Positions 1,932 to 51,074 of a DNA stretch of 58,116 nucleotides are shown piece by piece. Origin of the DNA: a virus. The notes below the pieces were generated by a model that was not told where the DNA came from, did not search any database, and worked only from the letters and a program-made list of their open reading frames with translations. The DNA is taken from UHGV virus genome UHGV-0195737. One strand, given 5' to 3'. The position numbers and the translations under genes are program-made. Positions within the stretch are counted from its first letter, which is position 1. Each line of letters opens with the position of its first letter.

Positions 1932-4900
1932 TTAAACCTTTTCGAATAATTGCCCGTCGGTTAGCGCTTTGTGCCAGATACGGAAATTGCGGATGTGTCC
2001 GAATAAGTGGCGCTCACCTGTTGATGTTTGACCGCCGAATCTGATGTTTTTGTCCTGAGTTACTCCACCGTAAGAACATGTTGCATCTGCAACGGCTACA
2101 CCATTCATGATTACATGGAAAGTATCATCATCTTTAACTACCGCACCAATAATGGCCTTATTTGGCAATACGGAAGCGGCGGCGGAATTGATATAAGCTC
2201 CGTCACTTTTGGATAGAGACATGTAATACTTATCGCTACCACGGTTAACCGCAGCGATAACGCCCTGCCCCGTATTAGCGTTGGCAATATCAAAAACACG
2301 CGGCGCGGCGTTTGGCGCTCTGAACCAGTCCTTGTGAAGCTCGATCAGGAAACTGAACGGAGGACGCGCAAGGTTGTTTTTAGTCGTAATGCTTACTAGA
2401 TCGCTCGCACGGGTAGAAGGAGTTGAACCTGAGCAAATATACGATGATGCATTCGGGCCAAGCTCGACTTGAGGTGTCGCTAGTTCCATGTAGTCGCCGG
2501 ACACGAACGCGCTAACCGGAGCAAGCTGAATTTGTGCAGTAACCAGCGTTACGGTTGATTTATACGTCACCACTGCGCGATTCCATCCGGTGATGTTGTC
2601 TGTTGTTACACTAACAGTGATATTGTCTGCACCGCCGCCTGCTTTCGTTACAGTCATGTCGCTTAGTTTGATATACGCATCACACAGGAATGCCAGGCTG
2701 GAAGTATCTTCACCACCAGCAAAACGGATACGCAACCGGACGTCGCTTGACGAACGAAAACGACAAGAAACCGTGACGTACTGTTCATCGTGCTGAGTAG
2801 TGTCGATAACGTTAGCAGTGATCACTGATGCCATGTTGCAAGCACCAGTACCGCCAACTGCACTGTCGTCGATCACGAATTTTCCGTACAGGAAACCGTA
2901 GCTGTCAGTTTCTGCTGTAGCGGTGATATTAGTTGATCGGCCCCAACTTGCAGGAACGCTACCGTTAATAAAGAAGTTTGTGCGAGTACCTTCAATTAAT
3001 AATCCCTCGCGTTCGAAACGTGGCTCATCAATATCAGCAATGGTTAAAACACCGGATTTATTAATATAAGTCGCAGTGCTGGCGCGGGCGAAGCCCACCA
3101 CTTTATCCGACGGGATGGATGTGGTTTCGTCGTTAACCGTTACTTTCTTATAGCCAGGAGCGAAGCCTGCCAGCATATCAAGTGAATCGTTAAACGGTAT
3201 CCATACGTCAGGAAATGGTGCTTCTTCATGAATAAGTGGATCGGATTCGAATTTAGCCCAATCCGTCCAGGTTTCCAAATTGGCGTAATAGGTGCGCATG
3301 TAATACAAACCCGTCGAATTGTACGGGTAATATAATTGCGTGGCCCCGTTTGTATAGTTGCCGTTTTTCAGTACAACCAGTGCACCACCATATTTGCATG
3401 GGTAATGCAGTTCGGTTGTTGCTTTTGATGATGCGCCCTGCCAGTAAACACCGGAATAAGCGGCGGTAAGCGTATCCAGATCGGTGTCAGCTAGTGAGCT
3501 TTTTTGTTCGTGCATAGCGGCAAGGTTGGTGCGGGCCGTGGCTGCATCGTTTGCACCTGTACCACCATGTGATAAATCAAGCGGAATCCATTTTGATTGA
3601 GTGTCGCTATAACAGCCCCACGATGTTCCAGTAAGCCCTAAACGCATAGATGAATCTGCGTTATATACCCAGGTTTCACTACCCCATTGAGCAAGGCGAT
3701 CTACTTTTAAGTTTTCTCTTGCTTCGTCGACTGTTACAGCCCCTGTGCCGCCCTGTTCAATAGCTAACGCCTTCCAGCAATTATCAACCGGACTGTAATA
3801 ACCCCAGCGGCCCGTCGCGTCGAGCTGAAGATAGCACCCTGCTGTCGAGTCGTCCATAGAATAAACTACTGTCCGATTGCTGCCGCTTTGATTAAATCGA
3901 CTAACCTCATTTTTTCTTGCGTGTCGCGTCCATTGTGGGCCAGTGCTTTCACTCCAACGATAAGTATAAAGCGAGCGTGTCCCCCACCCCTGGAAAATGC
4001 CTGTATATGATGGCGAACCATCGTTTACGCTAATGAAGCCTGTTAGATATGCTTCACCGTCCGCGACGTCTTCGGGCCATCCGGTGACGCCTTCGCGAAT
4101 ACGAATAAAGCCAATGTAAGCGGCGGGATTGCCGGAAATATCGGCGCAATCGCGCGGGGCGTTAGTTAGACCAATGTCACCCAATAACACACCAGAACTA
4201 AGAAAACGCGCCCATTCTGACCATGTGAAAGTTGCCGCATCAAAACTACGAAGATAAAACGAAGCATTATAGTTATAAGGGTAATAAATTTGCGTGCATC
4301 CAGAATCAGTATTAGCACTATTCCCAATCACAACAAGCGCACCCGCATTATTGCACGGATAATGGCGATCAGTAGTAGCTTGCGCGTTGAGTTTTTGGCG
4401 ATAAAAACCGGAATACTCGCCCGTGAGCGTATCCAGATCCGTGTCAGCAAGATCGGTTTTTTGCTCGTACATTACTTGTAAATTTGTGCGGGCTTGTCCG
4501 GCGTTACCGCCGCCCGTACCACCATAATTGATGCCTAACTTAATTGCCCCATCAACTGAATAAGCACCCCACCCCGTATTATTCACGAAGATGTAATTTT
4601 GGCCCACGCCGTCCCATAACTGCGTTTCGCCTGTTGAGTTACTCGTCTGCAATAAGCGGCTTACTTCATCCTTCCGGGCGTGACGTGTCCAGCCGTAAGT
4701 CCCATCGGCATTGTTATACATGTATGTATAAAGTGAGCGCGTGTTAGTTCCCACAAAACAGCCGTTAATGATCAGGCCGTCACCGCGTGCCAGCCAGCCT
4801 ACCAAGTAGACTTCACCGGAAGCGATAGACGGGAAACCCGTTGCGGTCGCCTCTTCCAGACGAACAAAGCCAATATAGGCTGATGGGTTAACTGTGCAAT

Positions 4901-5909
4901 CAGGCCAATCACGGCGATCAGCACCCAGGCCAATAAGAGATAGTGAATCTTCTGATAGTGATTTTGCTTGCTCCATGTAGGTTTTGGCGTTCGCTTCCGA
5001 AAGTGCGGCGGCGGTGGCTGATTCTGCGGCGGCGGCGGCATTAGCTGCAATTTCTTGTTCGTCTTCTGCAACATTGGCGGCGCTTGTTTCGGCAGCAGTG
5101 GCGGCTTCTGTAGCGATGGTGGCTTGTTCGGTTGCTGTGGTCGCTGATTCTGCGGCGTTATTCATCCAGATGTACGCCGTGCCGCGATGATCTTTTGCCT
5201 CTGCGGCGGCGGCCGCGGCGGCGGTGGCTTGTTCGGTCGCTACGGCTGCCTGTTCAGTTGCGACGGTTGCTTGCGCGGCGGCTTCGTCACGGGCCGTTTC
5301 GGTAGCGGTCTGCGCGGTCTGCGCGGCGCTGGCGGCATTAGTGGCGATGGTGGCTTGTTCGGTTGCCGTGGTCGCCTGCGTGGTGGCGGTGGCGGCATGT
5401 TTCCCAGCCAGTACGCTGTAATCTTCTGCGGCATTTTTCGCGGTAATAGCTTCATCCCGCGCGGCGGCGGTTGTTTCAACGTCTGCGGCGGTCGCGGCGG
5501 CGTTGGCGTTTGATTGCGCTGTTTCTGCCTGAATAGCGGCTAACAGTGCTTCAACCTGCGCGGCATCACCATAATTTTTCCAGTATTCGACGGCAGCATA
5601 GATCTCTGATTCTTGTCCGGTGAAATAGCGCAATGCCTCCGCTACGTCCTGGGCCAGCCCGTCAACCGAGATCGAATCGCACAGCAAAATACTGTAAGCA
5701 GTACCCGCCGGAATATCCGGTGATGCTGCCGGGGTTACAGACAATTCCGTTTCACTGACAATTTCAGTGATAGAAAAGATCTGAATGGGGTTACTTTTTA
5801 CGATAACAGTACACCCCACGCGGATCATGGATAGCGGCGCTTTAAAATTCGTACCCGTCCCGGTCAGCGTGTTACCGGATACGGCAATGCTTCCAATGGT
5901 GTAGATCAT
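1932..5909 (-). CDS. Long tail fibre protein, repeat-rich
   Basis: 1325 aa; Ala/Thr/Gln-rich low-complexity segment; two tandem copies of a ~250-aa module (TRHARK-EVSR, HYPC-GALVV-YYPYN). Confidence 0.65.
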   Translation of the reverse strand: MIYTIGSIAVSGNTLTGTGTNFKAPLSMIRVGCTVIVKSNPIQIFSITEIVSETELSVTPAASPDIPAGTAYSILLCDSISVDGLAQDVAEALRYFTGQESEIYAAVEYWKNYGDAAQVEALLAAIQAETAQSNANAAATAADVETTAAARDEAITAKNAAEDYSVLAGKHAATATTQATTATEQATIATNAASAAQTAQTATETARDEAAAQATVATEQAAVATEQATAAAAAAAEAKDHRGTAYIWMNNAAESATTATEQATIATEAATAAETSAANVAEDEQEIAANAAAAAESATAAALSEANAKTYMEQAKSLSEDSLSLIGLGADRRDWPDCTVNPSAYIGFVRLEEATATGFPSIASGEVYLVGWLARGDGLIINGCFVGTNTRSLYTYMYNNADGTYGWTRHARKDEVSRLLQTSNSTGETQLWDGVGQNYIFVNNTGWGAYSVDGAIKLGINYGGTGGGNAGQARTNLQVMYEQKTDLADTDLDTLTGEYSGFYRQKLNAQATTDRHYPCNNAGALVVIGNSANTDSGCTQIYYPYNYNASFYLRSFDAATFTWSEWARFLSSGVLLGDIGLTNAPRDCADISGNPAAYIGFIRIREGVTGWPEDVADGEAYLTGFISVNDGSPSYTGIFQGWGTRSLYTYRWSESTGPQWTRHARKNEVSRFNQSGSNRTVVYSMDDSTAGCYLQLDATGRWGYYSPVDNCWKALAIEQGGTGAVTVDEARENLKVDRLAQWGSETWVYNADSSMRLGLTGTSWGCYSDTQSKWIPLDLSHGGTGANDAATARTNLAAMHEQKSSLADTDLDTLTAAYSGVYWQGASSKATTELHYPCKYGGALVVLKNGNYTNGATQLYYPYNSTGLYYMRTYYANLETWTDWAKFESDPLIHEEAPFPDVWIPFNDSLDMLAGFAPGYKKVTVNDETTSIPSDKVVGFARASTATYINKSGVLTIADIDEPRFEREGLLIEGTRTNFFINGSVPASWGRSTNITATAETDSYGFLYGKFVIDDSAVGGTGACNMASVITANVIDTTQHDEQYVTVSCRFRSSSDVRLRIRFAGGEDTSSLAFLCDAYIKLSDMTVTKAGGGADNITVSVTTDNITGWNRAVVTYKSTVTLVTAQIQLAPVSAFVSGDYMELATPQVELGPNASSYICSGSTPSTRASDLVSITTKNNLARPPFSFLIELHKDWFRAPNAAPRVFDIANANTGQGVIAAVNRGSDKYYMSLSKSDGAYINSAAASVLPNKAIIGAVVKDDDTFHVIMNGVAVADATCSYGGVTQDKNIRFGGQTSTGERHLFGHIRNFRIWHKALTDGQLFEKV
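4990..5520. repeat. GC-rich tandem coding repeats inside fibre gene
   Basis: Repeated GGTGGCTTGTTCGGT-type units encoding AT(E/A)QAT-like repeats. Confidence 0.5.
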
Positions 5910-5952
5910 TGCAATGACTCCATTATGTTAATTAACGGAATAATTCTACCAT

Positions 5953-18500: not shown

Positions 18501-18542
18501 TTATACAAAATGGCTTTACTTTACCGACTCCATTTTGTATAA
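18501..18542. promoter_or_regulatory. Perfect 13-bp inverted repeat (putative regulator binding site)
   Basis: TTATACAAAATGG-N16-CCATTTTGTATAA upstream of plus-strand cassette d. Confidence 0.4.
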
Positions 18543-32140: not shown

Positions 32141-32379
32141 TGAATACAATTTCGCATTGTTAGGAAATATTTTAATCCGTTTGTTTAACCTATACAAACA
32201 CGGCTTATAGCTACAAATCACCAACCTTGCGCCAGGTCCGCTTCGATGCCTTTGATGGTGTTTACATATTCGCGTTTCATTTTCTTATCTCCCCTTCCGT
32301 CTTTCCTTGACTTATATATAACAAAACGGCACTGCCGGAACAATGCCATTTTGTAAACTTTGCGGGGTAGATCACGCTT
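32141..32379 (-). promoter_or_regulatory. Putative late promoter / Q-utilisation region
   Basis: Only sizeable non-coding gap between Q and holin; contains CCATTTTGT motif and a 20-aa SD-preceded mini-ORF. Confidence 0.3.
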
Positions 32380-32604
32380 TTATTCATCCTGCTTAAAGGC
32401 CACTACAACCGCGCGATCGTCATTCTGAATCAGCCACCAGCCACGCGCCTTGCTGGGCGCTGCATACCATAAGTGACCGTAAGCATCTGTGACGACTAAA
32501 AACGGATTTTTCGGTAATCCGCCTGGCTTTTCCGCTTCGTACTGGCAACCGTCCTCGAAACAATCAAGATCAGATCCGTGACACGTTAAAATAGTCATTA
32601 TCAT
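32380..32604 (-). CDS. Small protein, paralogue family member 1
   Basis: PKNPFLVVTDAYGHLWYA matches family motif; start at internal ATG. Confidence 0.4.
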   Translation of the reverse strand: MIMTILTCHGSDLDCFEDGCQYEAEKPGGLPKNPFLVVTDAYGHLWYAAPSKARGWWLIQNDDRAVVVAFKQDE

Positions 32605-38474: not shown

Positions 38475-38556
38475 GATTTATTCTCCTTCTGTCAGGTGAT
38501 ATATTTCCGCATTTCAGCGGGGCCAGGTTTTTAAAGAGCATTTCGTTTGATTGCAG

Positions 38557-38635
38557 TATACAAAATGGATACGCCCGGACAAGATGAAAAGCGCCATTAT
38601 GTGACGCTCATCACACAATGACGCCATTTTGTAAA
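38557..38635. promoter_or_regulatory. Intergenic element A with CRP-consensus palindrome
   Basis: TACAAAATGG...TGTGACGCTCATCACA...CCATTTTGTA; ~80% identical to element at 42417-42475. Confidence 0.4.
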
Positions 38636-38637
38636 CA

Positions 38638-39402
38638 TCAATCCGGTAAAACACGGTTAAGCGTAGTGCGAGTGATTGCCCGGTCGTTAGCCAGGAATAC
38701 AGCACGGGCAAAGCCGCGCGGCGTTAGTGAGCGGATCATCTTAGTGCGCTTCGACTTTCCGCCCAACTTCGCGTGCTGCTTACTATCTTCCCATTCATCC
38801 GGCATCGGTACAGGCCGGAATAGCGGCTGTTTAAATCCATTCCCACACCAGATACATGTTTTCTTCGTGTAGGCGTCGCGGTCGGCGATGTATTCCGGGA
38901 AAGCAGGATGTTTATCATCTTCCGGCAGGTAGCCACCGTAAGCGCACGGATTAAAGATAAAATCCGGTTTACGCCATAACGTTGACAGTGCGCCTACCGG
39001 ATTTTCCACCATCCACGGGACGTTATACATACTCGCCAGCATTTCTACTAACTTTGCGTTGTACGCTGCTTTCTGCTGAAAGTAAGGATCTTTCTTCCGC
39101 TTATCAGCAAACCAGCGAGCGCCGGATACCGCGAGATCGTCGCACGGAGGAAAGCCCAGGATAATGTCAGGATCTGGATAAACAGACAATTCAGGGGAGA
39201 ACATTACCAGGAAATGGCTGTCAATCCATACGTTAACGTATTCGATATTCGGATGAATGATTTTTACGCCTTCGTAATCGCCGTGATTAGCGCCGTCATA
39301 GTTGAAGCAATAGCACTTATATCCAGCTTCCGCCCAATCCTTAACGGCGTACCCGCTGCCGTCGTACAGCGACCACACAACCCAATTTCTAAGCCCTTTC
39401 AT
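38638..39402 (-). CDS. Atypical C5-cytosine methyltransferase-like protein
   Basis: C5-MTase-like motifs in order: LYDGSGY (I), GFPPCDD (IV-like, PCD not PCQ), ENPVG (VI-like); only 254 aa, no obvious target-recognition domain. Confidence 0.45.
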   Translation of the reverse strand: MKGLRNWVVWSLYDGSGYAVKDWAEAGYKCYCFNYDGANHGDYEGVKIIHPNIEYVNVWIDSHFLVMFSPELSVYPDPDIILGFPPCDDLAVSGARWFADKRKKDPYFQQKAAYNAKLVEMLASMYNVPWMVENPVGALSTLWRKPDFIFNPCAYGGYLPEDDKHPAFPEYIADRDAYTKKTCIWCGNGFKQPLFRPVPMPDEWEDSKQHAKLGGKSKRTKMIRSLTPRGFARAVFLANDRAITRTTLNRVLPD

Positions 39403-39902
39403 TTCCTGCCCTCAAACGTAAAATAGCGGCGCATGATGATAGTAATCACCGTTACCGCTGCCATTTTTGAGATGAATTGCATAGCTGATATTTCCGGCAT
39501 AAATGCCACAAACGATAGCGTAGGAAAAATTAACGCATCACCAATGGCGGACGCTATATTTGCAGGCCAGCGTTTAGAATCGAAATCACCAGGTAAAACC
39601 CGGTAAACGCCGCCAGAAATAAGCGCACCGGAAACAACCGCGACAAACGACGCGATCGCCACCATTCCGGCGTCGTAATTTATCAGCACCGTGATCGCGC
39701 CAGCTATAGCGCATGTTGTAGCCGACCATTTCAGGCCGCCGTCATATAACAGGAAGTCACGGATCATCATATTGACACACACAGCGGCTACCGTGGTGAC
39801 TGGAATTACCCACGGGCCGCAATGGTTAACAATAAGATTGATGATCACAAAAACGGCGACATAAACGCAGGCTAATAACCTGTCAATTGTCACCCTTTTC
39901 AT
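39399..39902 (-). CDS. Multi-pass inner membrane protein
   Basis: 4-5 predicted TM helices; start at internal ATG with SD GAAGGA. Confidence 0.45.
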   Translation of the reverse strand: MKRVTIDRLLACVYVAVFVIINLIVNHCGPWVIPVTTVAAVCVNMMIRDFLLYDGGLKWSATTCAIAGAITVLINYDAGMVAIASFVAVVSGALISGGVYRVLPGDFDSKRWPANIASAIGDALIFPTLSFVAFMPEISAMQFISKMAAVTVITIIMRRYFTFEGRK

Positions 39903-40374
39903 TTTTATGATCCTTCGGTGAATACAATAAAGCCTCTTTATTAAACCGCCAGCCGTTACCAAGCTGGAGGCTACCATTCATTATTACTTCGCCACTAGCG
40001 ATCAGGTCGCCTGGTATCGAGGTTTTTTTACAGCCGCAATTTAACGGCATATCAAAAACAGCCTGTTTCTTACTTTGTTCTTCCTCCCGATCCGTTAATA
40101 TTTGCTCTGCTTTTAGCGCGTTATAGCTAATCAAATCAATCAACGTGTCTGTCGGATCTGTTCCGTTGCTTAAAATGGCCCCTAAACGCGCTTCTTTGAG
40201 GCAAATCAGTAGATCCCATACATCAAGCGGGGTTAAATCGGCTCCCTTCTTAGCGTTGTAAATAGTGGCTATTTTTGGCGCTGATTTTTCCTCTTTTTTG
40301 TCGTAGCCGTTTTGCTTACCTCTTTGCTCTATGGTTTCCGCTGCGAGTCTTAATAAATCTGCTGCCTTAGTCAT
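39883..40374 (-). CDS. Hypothetical protein
   Basis: 163-aa ORF between membrane protein and Dam genes. Confidence 0.4.
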   Translation of the reverse strand: MTKAADLLRLAAETIEQRGKQNGYDKKEEKSAPKIATIYNAKKGADLTPLDVWDLLICLKEARLGAILSNGTDPTDTLIDLISYNALKAEQILTDREEEQSKKQAVFDMPLNCGCKKTSIPGDLIASGEVIMNGSLQLGNGWRFNKEALLYSPKDHKNEKGDN

Positions 40375-40907
40375 TATTCTGCACCTCTTGCATATAGCTC
40401 TTTACGTGTTATCTGCGTGAAAATACATTCATGCCTGCATCGTGGATGCCAGATCAAGAACAAGCTACCCTTATTGTTCCCGCTCGCTGGCTTACCAGTC
40501 GCAGCATTAATAAACGCCAGCCGCCCGCGCGTGATCAAGCGACATTCGTTTGCCGTTTCCAGGCCGTTCATAAACCAGTTAACAGAAATATCAGCGGGCA
40601 ATAACATTACACATCCGATATGATTTTGATGGTGCTCAAGTGCCGCCTTATCAACGAATGGCCCCGGATTAGAATATGGTGGATTCATCCAGACATACTC
40701 ACCAGGCATCGCCACCGCTCCCCACGGATAATGTAGTGTGTTCATTTCTTCGGTTATATATCGCGGAACTAATGCGTTTGCCTTGTTTGCCGCCACATCG
40801 GCGACGAATTCGAATTCCCGATCCATTCCTCTAAATACGGGCTTCGGCGTTTGCCAGAGATCCTTAATTTCCTTCGGCGTGTGGCTGCCGCCGTAATCAT
40901 TTTTCAT
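40374..40907 (-). CDS. DNA N6-adenine methyltransferase (phage Dam-type)
   Basis: 177 aa; NPPY catalytic motif; size typical of small phage Dam family. Confidence 0.7.
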   Translation of the reverse strand: MKNDYGGSHTPKEIKDLWQTPKPVFRGMDREFEFVADVAANKANALVPRYITEEMNTLHYPWGAVAMPGEYVWMNPPYSNPGPFVDKAALEHHQNHIGCVMLLPADISVNWFMNGLETANECRLITRGRLAFINAATGKPASGNNKGSLFLIWHPRCRHECIFTQITRKELYARGAE

Positions 40908-40916
40908 TATACCCCC

Positions 40917-41150
40917 TTAAAAATAATCCTGTTCCGTCCCCCAGCGGTTGTTTAAATACCCCACCAACCACACAAACCGCTCAATACTGATTAGCGGGGC
41001 GACCTTGCGATAATGCCTATCGAGTATCAGCCGCGTGGCTTTATCGCTATAGCCGTTTCTTTCTACCTCCGCTTTGCAGGCAGAAAGCGCCGCGCGGGCA
41101 GCAGTTTTAACGGCGTTAAATTGCGGCTCTGACAGGTTGAATAAAGCCAT
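40917..41150 (-). CDS. Hypothetical protein
   Basis: Start set at internal ATG with SD GGTGA. Confidence 0.35.
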   Translation of the reverse strand: MALFNLSEPQFNAVKTAARAALSACKAEVERNGYSDKATRLILDRHYRKVAPLISIERFVWLVGYLNNRWGTEQDYF

Positions 41151-41154
41151 ATAA

Positions 41155-41391
41155 TCACCACGGATCATCCCAATCAGGTGCGGCAGCCCAACAAAAACCC
41201 ATGAAAACACTAAAAGCGATTAGCACGCGTACACCAAAAAACAATTCCGCCCACGGTCGAATATCAGGAAGCGACCATGTGATAAACATTGCACCGACAA
41301 TCAAAACAGCAATAATGACAGTGCACCCCAGGAAAACAAAAAGCGCGGCTAAAAGCCACGCCCCCAAGAAATGAAACAGTTCTCTTAACAT
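41155..41391 (-). CDS. Small membrane protein (2 TM)
   Basis: 78 aa, two hydrophobic helices. Confidence 0.4.
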   Translation of the reverse strand: MLRELFHFLGAWLLAALFVFLGCTVIIAVLIVGAMFITWSLPDIRPWAELFFGVRVLIAFSVFMGFCWAAAPDWDDPW

Positions 41392-41595
41392 TTAAACGTC
41401 CTCAATCACCCCGCCTTTCACGCGCTCTTTAATATCCCACACATGAGGCATACACATTTCCTGATAATAGTGATCCGGCCTGCTGCCGAAATACCATTTG
41501 CCATCCATGTAAAAATAAACGCCCGAAAAATTACCAGGTGCGGCCTTTGTTGCTGCTTCTGGAATTTTCCATTCTCTGTAATGTTTAAACCGCAT
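41392..41595 (-). CDS. Hypothetical small protein
   Basis: 67-aa ORF. Confidence 0.4.
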   Translation of the reverse strand: MRFKHYREWKIPEAATKAAPGNFSGVYFYMDGKWYFGSRPDHYYQEMCMPHVWDIKERVKGGVIEDV

Positions 41596-41779
41596 GTAAC
41601 GATACCTCCCGGATAAGTTTGCTCAATTCAACATCTGGTAGCCTGCGAAAATGCTGTACACCATCGACAAAGCGCACGCAATAAACATCGCCTATATTGT
41701 TGTAGTAATAACAGCCACTAAAACCAATCCCGGCTAATTTGGCGTTGTCCGGTAATGTATAGCCACCAACCTTTTTCAT
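41585..41779 (-). CDS. Hypothetical small protein
   Basis: ATG start (track start is GTG). Confidence 0.4.
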   Translation of the reverse strand: MKKVGGYTLPDNAKLAGIGFSGCYYYNNIGDVYCVRFVDGVQHFRRLPDVELSKLIREVSLHAV

Positions 41780-41797
41780 ATTCAGCCTCACAAATAT

Positions 41798-41965
41798 TTT
41801 TCAATCACCCAGCGGAGAAACAAACCGACCATTACGATCCCCCAGCAACAAGCCATAAACATCAATTCAGCGTCCATTGTGTTTTCCTTCTTCCCAGGCG
41901 AAATAACAAACAAAGCCAACCAGGGCGAACAACCAACAACCCAGGATTAAATCAATCAGCCACAT
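41798..41965 (-). other. Two coupled hydrophobic microprotein ORFs (about 29 and 32 aa)
   Basis: MWLIDLILGCWLFALVGFVCYFAW with SD GGAGG; overlapping start of MDAELMFMACCWGIVMVGLFLRW. Confidence 0.3.
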
Positions 41966-41967
41966 AA

Positions 41968-42186
41968 TCACGCCTCCAGTAAGCCATAATCGAATTTTCC
42001 AAGATATTGCTCGATACCAATCATCTCGACACCCTGGACTTCCGCGCCCCATACAGTTACGTGATAAGCGTCCTCCCGCCATTGTTCGTGGCTTAACACT
42101 TCGTTTGCCGGATATTTCCGCCCGGCGACGTAAGCGCCCGGACCTACGCCACCCTCTACGCAATGCAGCATGATTTGGTTTTCCAT
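41968..42186 (-). CDS. Hypothetical protein
   Basis: ATG with SD GGGGTGGA; the overlapping Arg-rich track ORF 41867-42163 is judged spurious. Confidence 0.4.
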   Translation of the reverse strand: MENQIMLHCVEGGVGPGAYVAGRKYPANEVLSHEQWREDAYHVTVWGAEVQGVEMIGIEQYLGKFDYGLLEA

Positions 42187-42196
42187 ATCCACCCCG

Positions 42197-42379
42197 CTAA
42201 TAGCAAACCGCGTACATACAGATCCCGTTGTTGAAGGCTTTGATAATCAGGTCAATGATCATGTAAACGAGCATTACAGCCGCCGCCGGGACCAGAATCG
42301 CGAATAGTCCGCCTAACGTGCGCTCAATGATGAAGTGCGGGTTTAGTTTGCTTTTGTGGTTACGTTCAAAGTTTGTCAT
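42197..42379 (-). CDS. Small membrane protein
   Basis: About 60 aa from internal ATG; one TM helix. Confidence 0.35.
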   Translation of the reverse strand: MTNFERNHKSKLNPHFIIERTLGGLFAILVPAAAVMLVYMIIDLIIKAFNNGICMYAVCY

Positions 42380-42416
42380 TTTCCCGCCCTCCGTTCTGTA
42401 TACCTTTCGATTTAAG

Positions 42417-42475
42417 TTTACAAAACGGATACAGCAGGACAAGACAAAATGTATATTTATGTGATCGCAATCACG
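42417..42475. promoter_or_regulatory. Intergenic element B (homologue of element A)
   Basis: TACAAAACGGATAC...TGTGATCGCAATCACG; near-CRP palindrome. Confidence 0.4.
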
Positions 42476-42478
42476 CTG

Positions 42479-46218: not shown

Positions 46219-46252
46219 TGCACATTTCAGTGCAACCGGATTGTTAAAGAGC
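46219..46252 (-). promoter_or_regulatory. nutL-like site (boxA + boxB hairpin)
   Basis: Minus strand reads GCTCTTTAACAAT (rrn/lambda boxA-like), then hairpin TGCAC-TGAAAT-GTGCA, about 30 nt before N start. Confidence 0.45.
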
Positions 46253-46417
46253 ATTTTCAAACTTCCTTTTTTCTACTGCCTTCCCTCCTTTGACTCGCAA
46301 TATACGCCCCGTGATATGTTGAGTCAATCCATTTTGTATACTTTTTTAAAATATTTTCTATCTCATTGATATTCAAACAATAAAAACTGTTTTCGGTTTA
46401 CGTTTTGGTGCTTTCCG

Positions 46418-46450: not shown

Positions 46451-47098
46451 TTATGGCAGGTTTACGATCTTTGCATCCACCACCACGCCAATAATTTTTG
46501 ATTCAGGGTTTAGCGGGATTGGTGGGTACAGCGGATTAAGCGAACGTAAAAGCCTTTGACCTCCATCAATGATTAACTGTTTAAACGTCGGCGTTTGCCC
46601 TTCCTCCAGTTGGGCTATAACCAGTTTGCCGTCAATAGCTGGCGCGTGCGGATCGACAAGTATCATCGTCCCTGCCGGGATACTTAATCCCTGCGGTGCG
46701 TTCATTGACTCACCTTTTGCGACCAGCCAATAACTATCATCCGAACAAATCACGCTCGTGTTAACGTGTGGTAGTAATGCGCGTTTTGCTTCTTCCATGT
46801 AGTTTCCTGCGTCTTTCCAGTCAATAACCGGATAACGTCCCACGTCGAGCGGCGGCGCTCCCGGCAACGTATTTGAAACTGAATCATCGATAACCATCCC
46901 GTCATGAGTGACCGTAAACTGCCGACGACCAAGCGCCCGCATAATCCGCGCAATATCTTCAAGATTTGGCTCGCGGCGACCATTCAGCCAGTGAGATAAG
47001 CCGCCTTTTGTGATCCCCATGAGATCCGCCAATGAATCCTGGCTCATGCCTTGCGCCCGCATGAGTTGTTTTGCTAAGTCATACCATTTTGTTTTCAT
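46451..47098 (-). CDS. CI-like repressor (HTH plus LexA-type S24 peptidase domain)
   Basis: N-terminal HTH (QDSLADLMGITKGGLSHWLNG); C-terminal AKGESM serine motif and downstream Lys. Confidence 0.75.
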   Translation of the reverse strand: MKTKWYDLAKQLMRAQGMSQDSLADLMGITKGGLSHWLNGRREPNLEDIARIMRALGRRQFTVTHDGMVIDDSVSNTLPGAPPLDVGRYPVIDWKDAGNYMEEAKRALLPHVNTSVICSDDSYWLVAKGESMNAPQGLSIPAGTMILVDPHAPAIDGKLVIAQLEEGQTPTFKQLIIDGGQRLLRSLNPLYPPIPLNPESKIIGVVVDAKIVNLP

Positions 47099-47126
47099 AT
47101 CGCTACCCTATCGCCCTAAAAAGTTT

Positions 47127-47222
47127 GATGCAAGTCACAAAATGTATTTTTCAAGCCTTGACCGAAAAACACCATTCTGTAAACTTGCAGACAAGGTAAA
47201 GCCGGACTTGCAAAGACGCAAG
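47127..47222. promoter_or_regulatory. Operator/divergent promoter region
   Basis: Inverted repeats TCAAGcCTTGA, CTTGcagaCAAG, CTTGCaaagacGCAAG, plus TGCAAGTCA/GACTTGCA pair. Confidence 0.4.
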
Positions 47223-47265
47223 AAAAAAGATGAGGGAATAGCACAAAAAGGCGCATACCTTAAAA

Positions 47266-47405: not shown

Positions 47406-47660
47406 ATGAGTATGCACATGATGAATGAGGCTTGGAAAGTGGAACTTAACAGCCCGATTCAAAAACTTGTCTTAATGGCTCTGGCTGAAAAGGCAGATAA
47501 TCGCCGCCACGCCAGGGTATCACACCAAGAAATCGCAAAAATGTGTGAAATTCCTGTAAGTACGGTGATACTTGCTATCAACGGATTAACACACAAAGGA
47601 TTTATTTGTAACCCTTACCCGGTAAATGACGTTTACCTGGTAATGCTGCCGGAGGAATAG
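47406..47660 (+). CDS. Winged-helix regulatory protein (Cro/CII position)
   Basis: 84 aa; HTH-like segment SHQEIAKMCEIPVSTVILAINGL; first gene of rightward operon. Confidence 0.45.
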   Translation: MSMHMMNEAWKVELNSPIQKLVLMALAEKADNRRHARVSHQEIAKMCEIPVSTVILAINGLTHKGFICNPYPVNDVYLVMLPEE

Positions 47661-47662
47661 AA

Positions 47663-48775
47663 ATGAAGTGGTTTAAGCATGATAGCGATGCGAACCGCGA
47701 TGAAAAACTTCAAAACGTTTTGCTTGATTATGGCCTGGAAGGATACGGGCTTTATTGGTATTGCATCGAGTTAATAGCCTACGAAGTAGATCAACATAAT
47801 CTGACATTCGAACTAAAACACGATGCAAGAATCATTGCCCGGAACGTAGGATCAAGTCCGAAACGTGTAGAAGAAATGATGAGATACTTCATCGAAGTTG
47901 GCTTGTTCGACTGCTCACATGGCGTTGTAAGATGCCTGTCGTTAGCAAAAAGACTTGATCAATCAATGGCTTCGTCAAAAAGCGAATTTAGAGAGGCAAT
48001 TAAAAGGCTAAACGTCAAAAAAAATAAAAAGTTAGATAATCCTTTAGTGGAAGTAAATAATTCACCAGATACAGAAAAAGAAAAACCATGGCACAACCAT
48101 GATGCAGCCATGGCACAACCATGGCACAACCATGGATTAGAAGTAGAAGTAGAAGAAGAAATAGAAACAGAAGAAGAAAAGAAAAATATAAAAAGAAAAG
48201 AAGTCAATCAGGACGGTGACTTTCAGATAAGCGAATCTGCATTGCGTTGCCTGGCTTTCTACAACGAAAAGGCAGGATGCAAATGTCGTGATACTAAGCC
48301 ATTCATCGAACTACTGACAGAAACAAAAACACGTAAGGCATACACGGAGGATGAGATCACATTAGTAATTGAGTGGGCTTTGACGCAATGGCGTAGCCGT
48401 GGTGGAGTGCCTAAGCCTGTTAACATTTGCCGGGTAACTAAGTTTGATGGGTATCTGGCTGATGCTGAACAATGGCGCAAGCTGTCAGCTACTGTAAACG
48501 CTGCCGACGTGGTGGAAGCATTTAACAGCACGTTTGACGGCCTGTTACCACCTGCCGAACTGGATCGGGATATTGAACGTAAGATCCATTCGCTATCTGA
48601 CTACCTGAAAGACAAAAGCGTTGACAGCTTTATTGCTTACTTCCAGAAATTTAAAGCTGATGCGCCGAACTTCTATTTCGGTGAGAATGAAAGCGGCTGG
48701 CTGGCTGATATAGATTTTCTGTTGAAGCCGGAAACGCTCCGCAAGACGCGTAACTTCCAACATATACCATCATGA
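47663..48775 (+). CDS. Replication initiation protein (replisome organiser-like)
   Basis: 370 aa; N-terminal phage replisome-organiser-like region; iterons plus AT-rich tract inside the gene; upstream of DnaB. Confidence 0.6.
   Translation: MKWFKHDSDANRDEKLQNVLLDYGLEGYGLYWYCIELIAYEVDQHNLTFELKHDARIIARNVGSSPKRVEEMMRYFIEVGLFDCSHGVVRCLSLAKRLDQSMASSKSEFREAIKRLNVKKNKKLDNPLVEVNNSPDTEKEKPWHNHDAAMAQPWHNHGLEVEVEEEIETEEEKKNIKRKEVNQDGDFQISESALRCLAFYNEKAGCKCRDTKPFIELLTETKTRKAYTEDEITLVIEWALTQWRSRGGVPKPVNICRVTKFDGYLADAEQWRKLSATVNAADVVEAFNSTFDGLLPPAELDRDIERKIHSLSDYLKDKSVDSFIAYFQKFKADAPNFYFGENESGWLADIDFLLKPETLRKTRNFQHIPS
48086..48200. repeat. Putative origin: iterons plus AT/purine-rich tract
   Basis: CCATGGCACAA x3 plus degenerate copy, then GAAGTAGAAG...AAAAATATAAAAAG. 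Confidence 0.45.
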
Positions 48776-49904: not shown

Positions 49905-49937
49905 GTATACATTCCGTAAACCGGAGGAAATAACGTT

Positions 49938-51056
49938 ATGTCACAGAGAAAGATCAGCGATGAGCAACTGATCGCTGAGTACAACAAGGGGAAGACTTAC
50001 AAGCAAATAGCCGAAGAATATGGAATGGCAAAACGCAACGTCGAACGCCTGGGCGCACGGCTGGCTAAGCGCGGTTTAATATCCACGCGCCGCGCTCCTG
50101 GCTTCGGTGTTAACGGTGAATCATTGCTCGTTGATAAGGATGGCAATGTAATCATGCGCTGGATTAAAACGGCCCGTGACCGTGAGGAAATGGAAAGGCT
50201 AACGCAAGCGGCTTGCGACGCATTCACGGAAGAAATACCACGCGCGGAGGTAGTGCCAGTGCCGGAAATTGATTTCCAAAAAAGCCTGGCCCTTTATCCG
50301 GTATTCGATCTGCATATCGGGGCGCTTGCACATAAAGCTGAATGCGGAGAAAGCTACGACACCGGGATCGCCGAACGCGTGCTAAATGACTTCTTCGACT
50401 ACGCGGTAGGCGCTGCACCAACGTCTGAGAAGGCTGTTTTGCTTCTCGGAGGCGATCTACTTCACTCTGACGGGATGATCCCGGTTACACCGACAAGCGG
50501 GCATATTCTTGATCAGGATAGCCGCTACGCAAAACTTGTTTATGTGGCGATCCGGTCGGTCCGGCGTGCGGTGGGGAAAATGTTGTTAAACCATAAGGAC
50601 GTCGAGATACAAGTGTTATCCGGCAATCACGATCAGTCGGGGATGATCTGGCTACGTGCGGCGCTGGCGGCTTTTTACGAGGATGAACCGCGCGTAACGG
50701 TTGATGTATCACCTGCTATCGTCCACCACACGCAGTACGGTAAAACATTCCTTGCTTATCATCACGGGCACACCATCAAAAAACCCGAAAATTTGTTAGC
50801 TGCCTGTGTTTCTGACTGGCGGGAGGACTTCGGCAAGTCGGCGGCGGTTTACGCTCACACGGGGCATCTGCATCATCAATCTGTCGTAGAAACATCATTA
50901 GGGATCGTTGAGCACCACGGCACGTTAGCGGGTAAAGACGCTTATTCAACGAATGGCGGTTGGCGGTCGCGGCGGCTGGCGGCGGTGATAATTTACAGCC
51001 CGGATTATGGGGAAATCGGGCGCTTTGTTTATTACCCTGAATATTCCATTTTGTAA
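49938..51056 (+). CDS. HTH - metallophosphoesterase fusion protein
   Basis: N-terminal HTH (YKQIAEEYGMAKRNVERL); calcineurin-like phosphoesterase motifs DLH, GGDLLH, GNHD, HHGH, GHLHH. Confidence 0.55.
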   Translation: MSQRKISDEQLIAEYNKGKTYKQIAEEYGMAKRNVERLGARLAKRGLISTRRAPGFGVNGESLLVDKDGNVIMRWIKTARDREEMERLTQAACDAFTEEIPRAEVVPVPEIDFQKSLALYPVFDLHIGALAHKAECGESYDTGIAERVLNDFFDYAVGAAPTSEKAVLLLGGDLLHSDGMIPVTPTSGHILDQDSRYAKLVYVAIRSVRRAVGKMLLNHKDVEIQVLSGNHDQSGMIWLRAALAAFYEDEPRVTVDVSPAIVHHTQYGKTFLAYHHGHTIKKPENLLAACVSDWREDFGKSAAVYAHTGHLHHQSVVETSLGIVEHHGTLAGKDAYSTNGGWRSRRLAAVIIYSPDYGEIGRFVYYPEYSIL

Positions 51057-51074
51057 ACCGGAGGCGACGCCATA

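Follow-up and report, generated by a model that had tools for sequence, protein, structure and literature searches.

Candidate repressor-controlled and possibly CRP-assisted promoters within the early-right operon of an mEp021-group prophage

The viral genome UHGV-0195737, 58,116 nucleotides long and analysed as one whole stretch (hereafter the window), reads as a prophage of the mEp021 group (mEpimmI), which comprises Nus-dependent non-lambdoid temperate coliphages. Two related intergenic elements lie among its early-right genes, el1 at 38557–38635 and el2 at 42417–42475. Our analysis leans, by no wide measure, toward both being internal promoters controlled by the phage repressor and possibly assisted by the host cyclic AMP receptor protein (CRP), and toward their being paralogous copies of the cassette type found at pL. 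An earlier reading made from the sequence alone had offered two alternatives, internal promoters responsive to cyclic AMP (cAMP)-CRP or binding sites for a phage regulator. Each of them is partly supported computationally, for different parts of the element. For the TACAAAAYGGATAC part, the operator of the phage's own CI-like repressor (Rep021 family) is the best reading, one that does not extend to the palindromes. The CRP-responsive promoter draws support from the scores and enrichment of the palindromes and from the register of the -10 and -35 hexamers, with ninF-like, NinG, RusA and Q genes downstream of el1.

Both elements were found where the sequence-only reading had placed them, in short gaps flanked by co-oriented minus-strand genes. 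The motif common to both, TACAAAAYGGATACNNCNGGACAAGA, occurs exactly twice in the window (38559 and 42419), when none is expected from 100 shuffles. The two elements had been called about 80% identical. Their homology stands, with a 39-nt core that aligns at an E value of 1.2e-4 within the window; the figure holds for this core only (79.5%), and over the span given for el2 it drops to 40 of 59 positions (68%). An exact-pattern scan of IMG/VR with the 26-mer common to both elements returned the source contig only. Relatives were IMG/VR contigs fetched via neighbouring proteins. Among them el1 is found in 42 contigs and el2 in 44, at the same two positions, and the el2 query cross-matches el1 in many, so the paralogy is old and conserved. 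Such conservation at two fixed positions argues that the elements are not due to chance.

Read on the minus strand, el1 and el2 have the same order and register. A palindrome would lie near -60, followed by the weak -35 hexamer TTGTCC, a 16-bp spacer, the block GTATCC(A/G)TTTTGTA(T/A)AC and a conserved start region; in el2 these parts read as the palindrome CGTGATTGCGATCACA, ATACATTTTGTC abutting TTGTCC, the 16-nt spacer and GTATCCGTTTTGTAAACT. The block is a 17-bp dyad box, also written GT(A/T)TAC-AAAA(T/C)-GGATAC, which overlaps the -10, and its 3′ half would supply that hexamer (TATACT or TAAACT). The spacing of the hexamers at both elements is that expected of a σ70 promoter. In el1 almost no indels occur across 32 distinct relatives: the arms of an RNA hairpin, the TTGT of the -35, the block and the adjoining nut site nutR2 are kept, while the hairpin loop, the U-tract and the stretch between the -35 and the block vary freely. 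The block GTATCC(A/G)TTTTGTATACT is invariant in these relatives and, written as GTATCCATTTTGTATACT, contains TATACT. Similarly, ATCCGTTTTGT of the el2 box is invariant in 31 distinct relatives.

The assignment of TACAAAAYGGATAC to the CI-like repressor follows from the way in which the box type in the gaps upstream of repressor genes changes with the type of the recognition helix. The window repressor has the helix TKGGLSHW. Repressor relatives in IMG/VR with the similar helices SKGAVGHW or TKGAVSHW carry three GTATAC-N5-GTAT boxes in the gap between the repressor and the divergent gene. In 30 such loci the 150 nt before the repressor gene contain 86 occurrences of TATAC-N5-GTAT, against two elsewhere (19.1 vs 0.02 per kb), and the outer boxes double as -10 elements of both divergent promoters. 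Loci with a lambda-like helix (QSAVAQLLNG) have TATCACC...GGTGATA repeats upstream of the repressor gene, and those with an SRIGNYELG-type helix have TGTGATTA...TAATCACA repeats there. A scan of the genome contigs with the repressor alignment gave no match.

In the window the box reads GTATAC-AAAAT-GGATAC in el1, GTTTAC-AAAAC-GGATAC in el2, GTATAC-AAAAT-GGATTG at pR and GTTTAC-AGAAT-GGTGTT at pL. The boxes of el1 and el2 are the two best dyads of the window, that of el1 being the best, on a scoring template that was itself partly derived from el1. Within these boxes the half-sites match each other at 5 of 6 positions, and the length of 17 bp is within the 14–18 bp or so of operators of CI/LexA-type repressors. 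At pL the box lies over the -10, and a second box lies next to the -35 of the putative repressor promoter. About 15 box-like sites are dispersed over the genome. An expression plasmid for Rep021, pRep021, exists (PMC11893012). The repressor was also considered as the binder of the palindromes and rejected, since pR and the related switch regions have no palindromes and the half-sites differ. Other identities of the box were rejected by eye, namely an extended -10 (the TG is one position off), promoters of σS, σ32, σE or σ54, sites for IHF, DnaA, TyrR, LexA, PhoP, OmpR or CpxR, and a miniature inverted-repeat element.

The palindromes are as the sequence-only reading described them, a perfect TGTGA-N6-TCACA in el1 and a copy with one mismatch in el2. 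With a weight matrix made from 16 classic E. coli sites, the scores of which are a lead and not a curated test, el1 matches the CRP core at 10 of 10 positions (16.8 bits) and el2 at 9 of 10 (13.0 bits; consensus AAATGTGATCTAGATCACATTT), both within the range of genuine sites (about 10–17 bits). The five best matches of the window, at 5952, el1, pL, 13183 and el2 (13.0–17.4 bits), all fall in cassettes of the family described below. Four sites reach at least 16 bits, whereas 300 Markov simulations give an expectation of 0.057. Of the 8 best matches in mEp021, 7 are at syntenic junctions, and pR has none. The site scores 15.3–19.3 bits at el1 in all 42 relatives, and 15–16.8 bits at pL in 41 of 41, where the palindrome lies upstream of both predicted starts, that of pL and that of the repressor promoter. 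At el1 and el2 the CRP centre is predicted at -59.5, if transcription starts 7 nt after the -10 hexamer, or at -60.5, the start position being itself a prediction.

The two elements belong to a genome-wide family. Nine promoter-like cassettes of about 90 bp stack in register on their -10-like hexamers, so that the family has at least nine members: pR, pL, el2, el1, one near 32320 upstream of the lysis genes, and those near 18538, 15311, 13245 and 6016, which precede plus-strand gene islands interrupting the tail genes. Their common architecture is ACAAAATGG abutting the -35, CCATTTTG abutting a TAWAMT hexamer, and a start region resembling (A/G)TCAAAGGA. Six of the nine stand where a transcription unit must begin, that is, at pR and pL (upstream of nutR1 and nutL) and before the four opposite-strand islands. 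The string TACAAAATGGAT with at most 2 mismatches occurs 25 times in the window against 8 expected, a count reached in none of 100 shuffles. The 10-mer TACAAAATGG has 9 exact copies, and the copies in mEp021 are at syntenic places. When a profile hidden Markov model was built from the seven other cassettes, el1 (E = 1.7e-4) and el2 (E = 0.015) were its best matches outside the training set, on the minus strand. The closest paralogue is pL, in which the palindrome is 48.5 bp upstream of the start of the -10, compared with 47.5 bp in el1 and el2. Maximal-order Markov k-mer statistics are uninformative for a motif of this length, and an Rfam scan of the whole window gave no match.

These parts can be assembled into a proposal for both states of the phage. 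In a lysogen, the repressor would occupy the boxes over the -10 hexamers of pL, el1, el2 and other cassettes and silence the internal promoters, and the box-bound repressor could also stop RNA polymerase arriving from upstream. Q would be further insulated at el1 by the hairpin of the predicted terminator t4 and by another box located 64 bp upstream. During lytic growth, el1 and el2 would act as secondary σ70 promoters within the early-right operon, possibly aided by cAMP-CRP in a class-I-like geometry. The el1 gap may thus be a junction at which transcription is terminated, re-initiated and reloaded with antiterminator ahead of the ninF-like, NinG, RusA and Q genes. The t4 stem would be an extension of the el1 palindrome, and the cassette would lie between t4 and nutR2, so that transcripts from el1 take up nutR2 very close to the 5′ end. 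Each of the three nut sites of the window lies downstream of a family promoter, which would provide a rationale for the third. At el2, transcription would restart ahead of a short run of small genes closed by the predicted t3.

Several observations weigh against this proposal, besides the CRP matrix not being a curated one. The predicted centres at -59.5 or -60.5 are 1–2 bp off the canonical -61.5, and the palindrome is at -63.5, -65.5 and -70.5 in other cassettes. In el1 the conservation of the palindrome is inseparable from that of the hairpin. In a large clade of relatives the -10 of el2 (TAAGCC) and its CRP-like site have decayed, yet the core of the box is still invariant. At pR the box does not cover the core promoter but adjoins the -35 from upstream, an unusual position for a repressor. 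Boxes at 49905 and 51042 have neither a -35 nor a CRP-like site, so operator-only sites exist in this genome. Moreover, the -10-like hexamer is part of an operator half-site (GTATAC or GTAAAC) and could be conserved for the repressor alone.

Alternatively, el1 and el2 could be auxiliary operators of the CI-like repressor that have no promoter activity and serve as roadblocks or as anchors of cooperative loops with pR and pL, an account that we hold to be doubtful though it deserves serious weight. The -10-like hexamer would then be a half-site, read-through would be blocked in the manner of stoperators, and t4 would back the el1 roadblock to keep Q silent. The dispersal of the box-like sites is in agreement with this, as are the left-operon boxes 49905 and 51042, which stand between genes and show no promoter features, and the persistence of the el2 box core where the -10 and the CRP-like site decay. 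Furthermore, the five boxes that lie within operons or over a -10 (el1, el2, 49905, 51042 and pL) share one orientation relative to transcription. Operators alone leave unexplained the invariant TTGT 16 bp upstream, the indel-free spacing, the CRP-type site at a distance like that in pL and the likeness of the start region to that of pR. Roadblocking is nevertheless compatible with internal promoters and does not exclude them. In el2 the -10 and the CRP-like site (3.1–15.6 bits in relatives) decay together (Mann-Whitney p = 0.0009), a correlation that comes mostly from one clade and is weak for that reason.

It is also conceivable, although unlikely, that a phage-encoded regulator binds the palindromes in place of host CRP, with the cassette otherwise unchanged. 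Related contigs contain another family of repressors, with TGTGATTA...TAATCACA as operators, and the distance from the palindrome to the -10 varies between cassettes. Nevertheless, among the proteins of the window neither the CRP DNA-binding domain nor TGTGAT-type repressors have a homologue, and by score the palindromes equal genuine CRP sites, which makes host CRP the best candidate binder. The lone weak match to a Crp-like helix-turn-helix (HTH), in the 84-aa first gene of the left operon, is explained by the product being the N-terminal domain of an O-like replication initiator, and the gene was rejected as a Cro/CRP-like regulator.

An account at the level of RNA alone takes el1 as the terminator t4 with flanking UACAAAAUGG/CCAUUUUGUA pairing, el2 as its decayed copy and the palindromes as stems. 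The el1 palindrome is indeed the apex of a hairpin with a 16-bp stem, which folds at -23.3 kcal/mol (z = -4.1) and is the best terminator-like match in our scan; the whole element folds at -30 kcal/mol. All three mismatches of the stem at the DNA level are G·U wobbles on the transcribed strand, and the sole changes in relatives are one-sided and keep the pairing. The annotation TERM_4 in the mEp021 record spans the equivalent hairpin and is the 'predicted t4' of the mEp group paper, called in TransTermHP style with a score of 79. However, ARNold-based annotations of five sister phages call no terminator at el1, and the U-tract is short and variable, the sequence after the stem being UUUUCAU in the window and UAUUCAC in mEp021. 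One pair of the stem is C·A in 17 of 31 relatives, a break that is not compensated. A covariation analysis of the hairpin and the outer helix found no compensatory or double changes, and neither supports nor refutes an RNA structure. The palindrome is in register in el2 too, which has no long stem, U-tract or nut site and no significant RNA structure on folding (z = -0.5); the features common to el1 and el2 are therefore best explained at the DNA level. The pL palindrome is conserved upstream of both predicted starts and so is probably untranscribed, and the same palindrome type occurs at five divergent junctions. We regard RNA alone as an improbable explanation, slightly more so than a phage-encoded binder. 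That the elements are non-functional module-boundary or linker sequence left by mosaic recombination is hardly credible: both do sit at gene-cassette boundaries, and in distant methyltransferase relatives the stop codon is directly followed by a string like CACAAAATGT or CACTTTTTGT with a hairpin, but invariant blocks alternate with free ones, the spacing is fixed in more than 40 genomes and the motifs are enriched genome-wide at syntenic places.

The features that make up the two elements and their closest relatives in the window are collected in Table 1.

Table 1. Positions of the features of el1, el2, the neighbouring nut site and the related promoters pL and pR in the window.
Feature	Position	Strand	Details
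el1 gap	38475–38637 (163 nt)		minus-strand neighbours: from the stop of the DNA methyltransferase gene (38638–39402) to the ninF-like start (38474)
el1 upstream operator-like box GTTTACAAAATGGCGTC	38620–38636	-	directly after the methyltransferase stop; exact TACAAAATGG 10-mer at 38624–38633
el1 RNA hairpin GGCGUCAUUGUGUGAU-GAGC-GUCACAUAAUGGCGCU	38590–38625	-	16-bp stem, 4-nt loop; predicted intrinsic terminator t4
el1 CRP-type 22-mer TTATGTGACGCTCATCACACAA	38597–38618		core TGTGA-N6-TCACA at 38600–38615; centre 47.5 bp upstream of the start of the -10 hexamer
el1 U-tract CUUUUCAU	38586–38589	-	3′ of the hairpin; 3–5 U, variable in relatives
el1 -35-like TTGTCC	38577–38582	-	TTGT invariant in relatives, flanks variable
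el1 17-bp dyad box GTATACAAAATGGATAC	38556–38572		putative operator of the CI-like repressor; overlaps -10
el1 -10-like TATACT	38555–38560	-	scan TTGTCC-16-TATACT; predicted start near 38548; invariant in 32 distinct relatives
nutR2	38507–38540	-	boxA TGCTCTTTAAAAA at 38528–38540, exact match; boxB hairpin CCGCUGAAAUGCGG at 38507–38520
el2 gap	42380–42478 (98 nt)		minus-strand neighbours: from the 216-aa gene (function not known; stop 42479) to the ATG of the 60-aa gene (42379)
el2 CRP-type 22-mer	42457–42478		core TGTGATCGCAATCACG at 42460–42475; centre 47.5 bp upstream of the -10 start; overlaps the stop of the 216-aa gene
el2 secondary box ATATACATTTTGTCTTG (minus-strand reading)	42440–42456		abuts -35; resembles the O2-type box of related repressor loci
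el2 -35-like TTGTCC	42437–42442	-	TTGTGA in most relatives
el2 17-bp dyad box GTTTACAAAACGGATAC	42416–42432		putative repressor operator; overlaps -10; second-best in the window, 16/17
el2 -10-like TAAACT	42415–42420	-	16-bp spacer; predicted start near 42408
pL cassette	47121–47185	+	CRP-type site at 47121–47142, TTGACC-16-TAAACT, box CCATTCTGTAAAC over -10; nutL boxA at 47265
pR	46299–46341	-	box GTATACAAAATGGATTG abutting TTGACT-17-TATATT; no CRP-like site; nutR1 boxA at 46241–46253

The upstream box of el1, which reads TTTACAAAATGG after the stop codon, is inverted relative to the main box at a distance of 64 bp between centres; it scores 14/17 on the box template and is nearly invariant in 32 distinct relatives. 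Unrelated phages with a distantly related methyltransferase (45–61% identity; L050–L061) carry CACTTTTTGTTAAAA or CACAAAATGTTAAAA together with a G+C-rich hairpin immediately beyond its stop codon, and the arrangement of box and hairpin may travel in part with the methyltransferase cassette. The site nutR2 adjoins el1 outside the span first described for it, beginning some 8 nt downstream of where el1 transcription is predicted to start. It is 75–80% identical to the nutR1 and nutL regions of the window and has the make-up of a lambda-type nut site, a boxA of the rrn/lambda consensus followed by a short hairpin with an A-rich loop. The nut sites and terminators of mEp021 were reportedly characterised by Valencia-Toxqui et al. 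in 2023. In that phage nutR2 is likewise found downstream of the cytosine methyltransferase gene (PMC11893012). The sequence-only reading had not mentioned nutR2, nor that the el1 palindrome is the apex of the t4 hairpin, nor the genome-wide family including pL and pR, nor the decay of the CRP-like site in el2.

Most relatives have TTGTGATCGC as a third half-site at the -35 of el2 (about 2150–2300 of each locus, L012–L069). A 9-bp pairing of this half-site with GCGATCACA is possible as an alternative to a short GTGAT/ATCAC hairpin, and a compensatory change from A-T to G-C was seen in the el2 of L033 and L040. In the lineage of the window (L011, L015 and L021) this half-site is replaced by TTGTCC(T/C)GCTGT.

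At the switch itself, the pL palindrome overlaps the putative -35 of the repressor promoter (TTGCAT) and an O2-like box, ATACATTTTGTGAC, so that CRP and the repressor could compete there. The repressor gene is seemingly leaderless, with TAGGGT, 6 nt and the ATG within 47096–47142, a geometry identical to that of the TATAAT-N6-ATG of related repressor loci. Beside the repressor gene no Cro-like gene was seen. The promoter pR (46290–46330, minus strand) is flanked by a conserved inverted repeat of 7–8 bp, TTGACTC(G)...(C)GAGTCAA, the left arm of which is the -35 hexamer, while the right arm falls at roughly +1 to +8. The pR box also precedes a good -10 (TATACT) on the other strand, directed antisense into the repressor gene. 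In the left operon, the boxes at 49905–49921 (GTATACATTCCGTAAAC) and 51042–51058 (TATTCCATTTTGTAAAC) lie between a stop codon and the next ribosome-binding site, each followed by CGGAGG, and may be operator-only roadblocks. A full cassette, TACAAAATGGC-ATTGTT-...-CCGTTTTGT-TATATA-AGTCAAGGAAAG with half a CRP-like site, lies on the minus strand at 32290–32380 between the stop of a small gene and the lysis genes, and a 19-codon open reading frame (ORF) follows. It corresponds to the t5 region of mEp021 and could be a Q-dependent late promoter or another internal promoter.

The minus-strand genes run from about 46300 down to about 140, the early-right genes first and then Q, lysis and virion genes, and the plus-strand left operon with the replication genes begins at about 47190. 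The flanks of el1 and el2 are 77–88% identical to MagusPhagus, mEp010, mEp013, mEp044, mEp515, mEp554 and mEp021. A megablast of el1 against complete E. coli genomes matched 6 of 5,426, a figure limited by the shortness of the query. Phages of mEpimmI are reportedly as common as lambdoid phages in human faecal isolates, and gp29 (ipe) of mEp021 gives a phenotype in lysogens (PMC11893012). In the window ipe is at 40917–41210, between el2 and el1 and beyond the predicted t3. That it is expressed in lysogens implies that some promoter is active within the early-right operon; the promoter responsible was not located, no dedicated follow-up having been made. In the left operon, the 84-aa first gene (47406–48775 region) matches the N-terminal winged-helix domain alone of O-like replication initiators, and the next ORF, of 370 aa, begins 3 nt further on, so that the two may be a split initiator. 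Within a 1325-aa minus-strand gene (1932–5909), imperfect repeats of 21 and 105 nt, densely arrayed and rich in GCGGCGGTGGC, occupy 4984–5530, presumably a repetitive segment of the tail fibre.

Each component considered here belongs to a known kind (σ70 promoter, CRP site, CI-type operator, intrinsic terminator, nut site). The mEpimmI switch is barely described, with no operators or promoters given in PMC11893012; the operator sequence, the internal promoter-like cassettes and the CRP-type sites are what the present analysis would add. A wider proposal, which we put forward only tentatively, is that phages of the mEp021 type run their whole programme through one cassette, by dispersed operators, promoters wired to CRP and a nutR2 with its own promoter. 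If it were true, a repressor of the CI/LexA type would act on some 15 dispersed dyad operators, with roadblocks in both early operons, bringing a stoperator-like logic to a Nus-dependent coliphage. CRP sites would be present in about seven phage promoters, and host cAMP would bias the lysis-lysogeny switch and the accessory genes of the prophage; one of these sites would lie over the -35 of the repressor promoter while being at about -60 of pL. The site nutR2 would exist because it has its own repressor-controlled promoter. The narrower reading would, if right, supply the operator sequence of the single immunity repressor of the mEpimmI group, a rationale for nutR2 through a promoter of its own behind t4, and a testable link from host cAMP-CRP to seven phage promoters, the pL/repressor-promoter switch included. 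In the mEp021 group, automated promoter calls should be taken with caution, since the -10-like hexamers are partly operator half-sites.

A close comparison is mEp021, in which el1 contains t4 directly upstream of nutR2, at the same place after the cytosine methyltransferase gene. The paper on the mEp group makes no mention of a promoter, operator or CRP site at the nutR2/t4 junction or of the el2 paralogue, and its supplements hold no text on nut sites, terminators or promoters (PMC11893012). The phage of the window resembles lambda in having a CI-like repressor (HTH and S24), operators that are dyads of about 17 bp over promoter hexamers, nut sites with boxA and boxB downstream, a terminator ahead of NinG, RusA and Q and, probably, a leaderless repressor mRNA. 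The six operators of lambda form two clusters and its nut sites number two, whereas here the box-like sites are dispersed, single or paired per promoter, and a third nut site has its own promoter-like cassette within the operon. Also unlike lambda, no cro stands beside the repressor gene, the repressor is co-oriented with pR, and the cassette includes CRP-type sites.

A class I CRP-dependent promoter such as lac P1 combines a weak -35 and a σ70 -10 with a 22-bp TGTGA-N6-TCACA site some 60 bp before the start; sites of this class are centred near -61.5, or at -72.5, -82.5 and so on. The site, the weak -35 and the σ70-like -10 of el1 and el2 are alike, while the predicted centre differs from the -61.5 of lac P1 and the el1 site is in addition an RNA hairpin. 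In coliphage T1, cAMP-CRP controls several promoters (pir, dam and recE), and repression by CRP was tested experimentally (PMC6737242). As predicted here, host CRP acts in T1 on several promoters of one coliphage and links host metabolism to the phage programme; T1 is nevertheless an unrelated phage with measured repression, whereas the sites of the window are predictions from sequence with a geometry that suggests activation. The C1 repressor of P1 acts on 17-bp asymmetric operators at many loci, and gp71 of mycobacteriophage L5 is a monomeric repressor that binds asymmetric 13-bp stoperators. The likeness is in one immunity repressor with many scattered sites, some of them in short gaps within operons. 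P1 C1 and L5 gp71 are unrelated proteins with asymmetric, monomer-bound sites, whereas the sites of the window are 17-bp dyads, which differ from the asymmetric 13-bp site that defines an L5 stoperator, and would be bound by a CI/LexA-like repressor. As to orientation, el1, el2, 49905, 51042 and pL are alike, while the boxes upstream of a -35 are inverted and most sites coincide with promoter-like cassettes.

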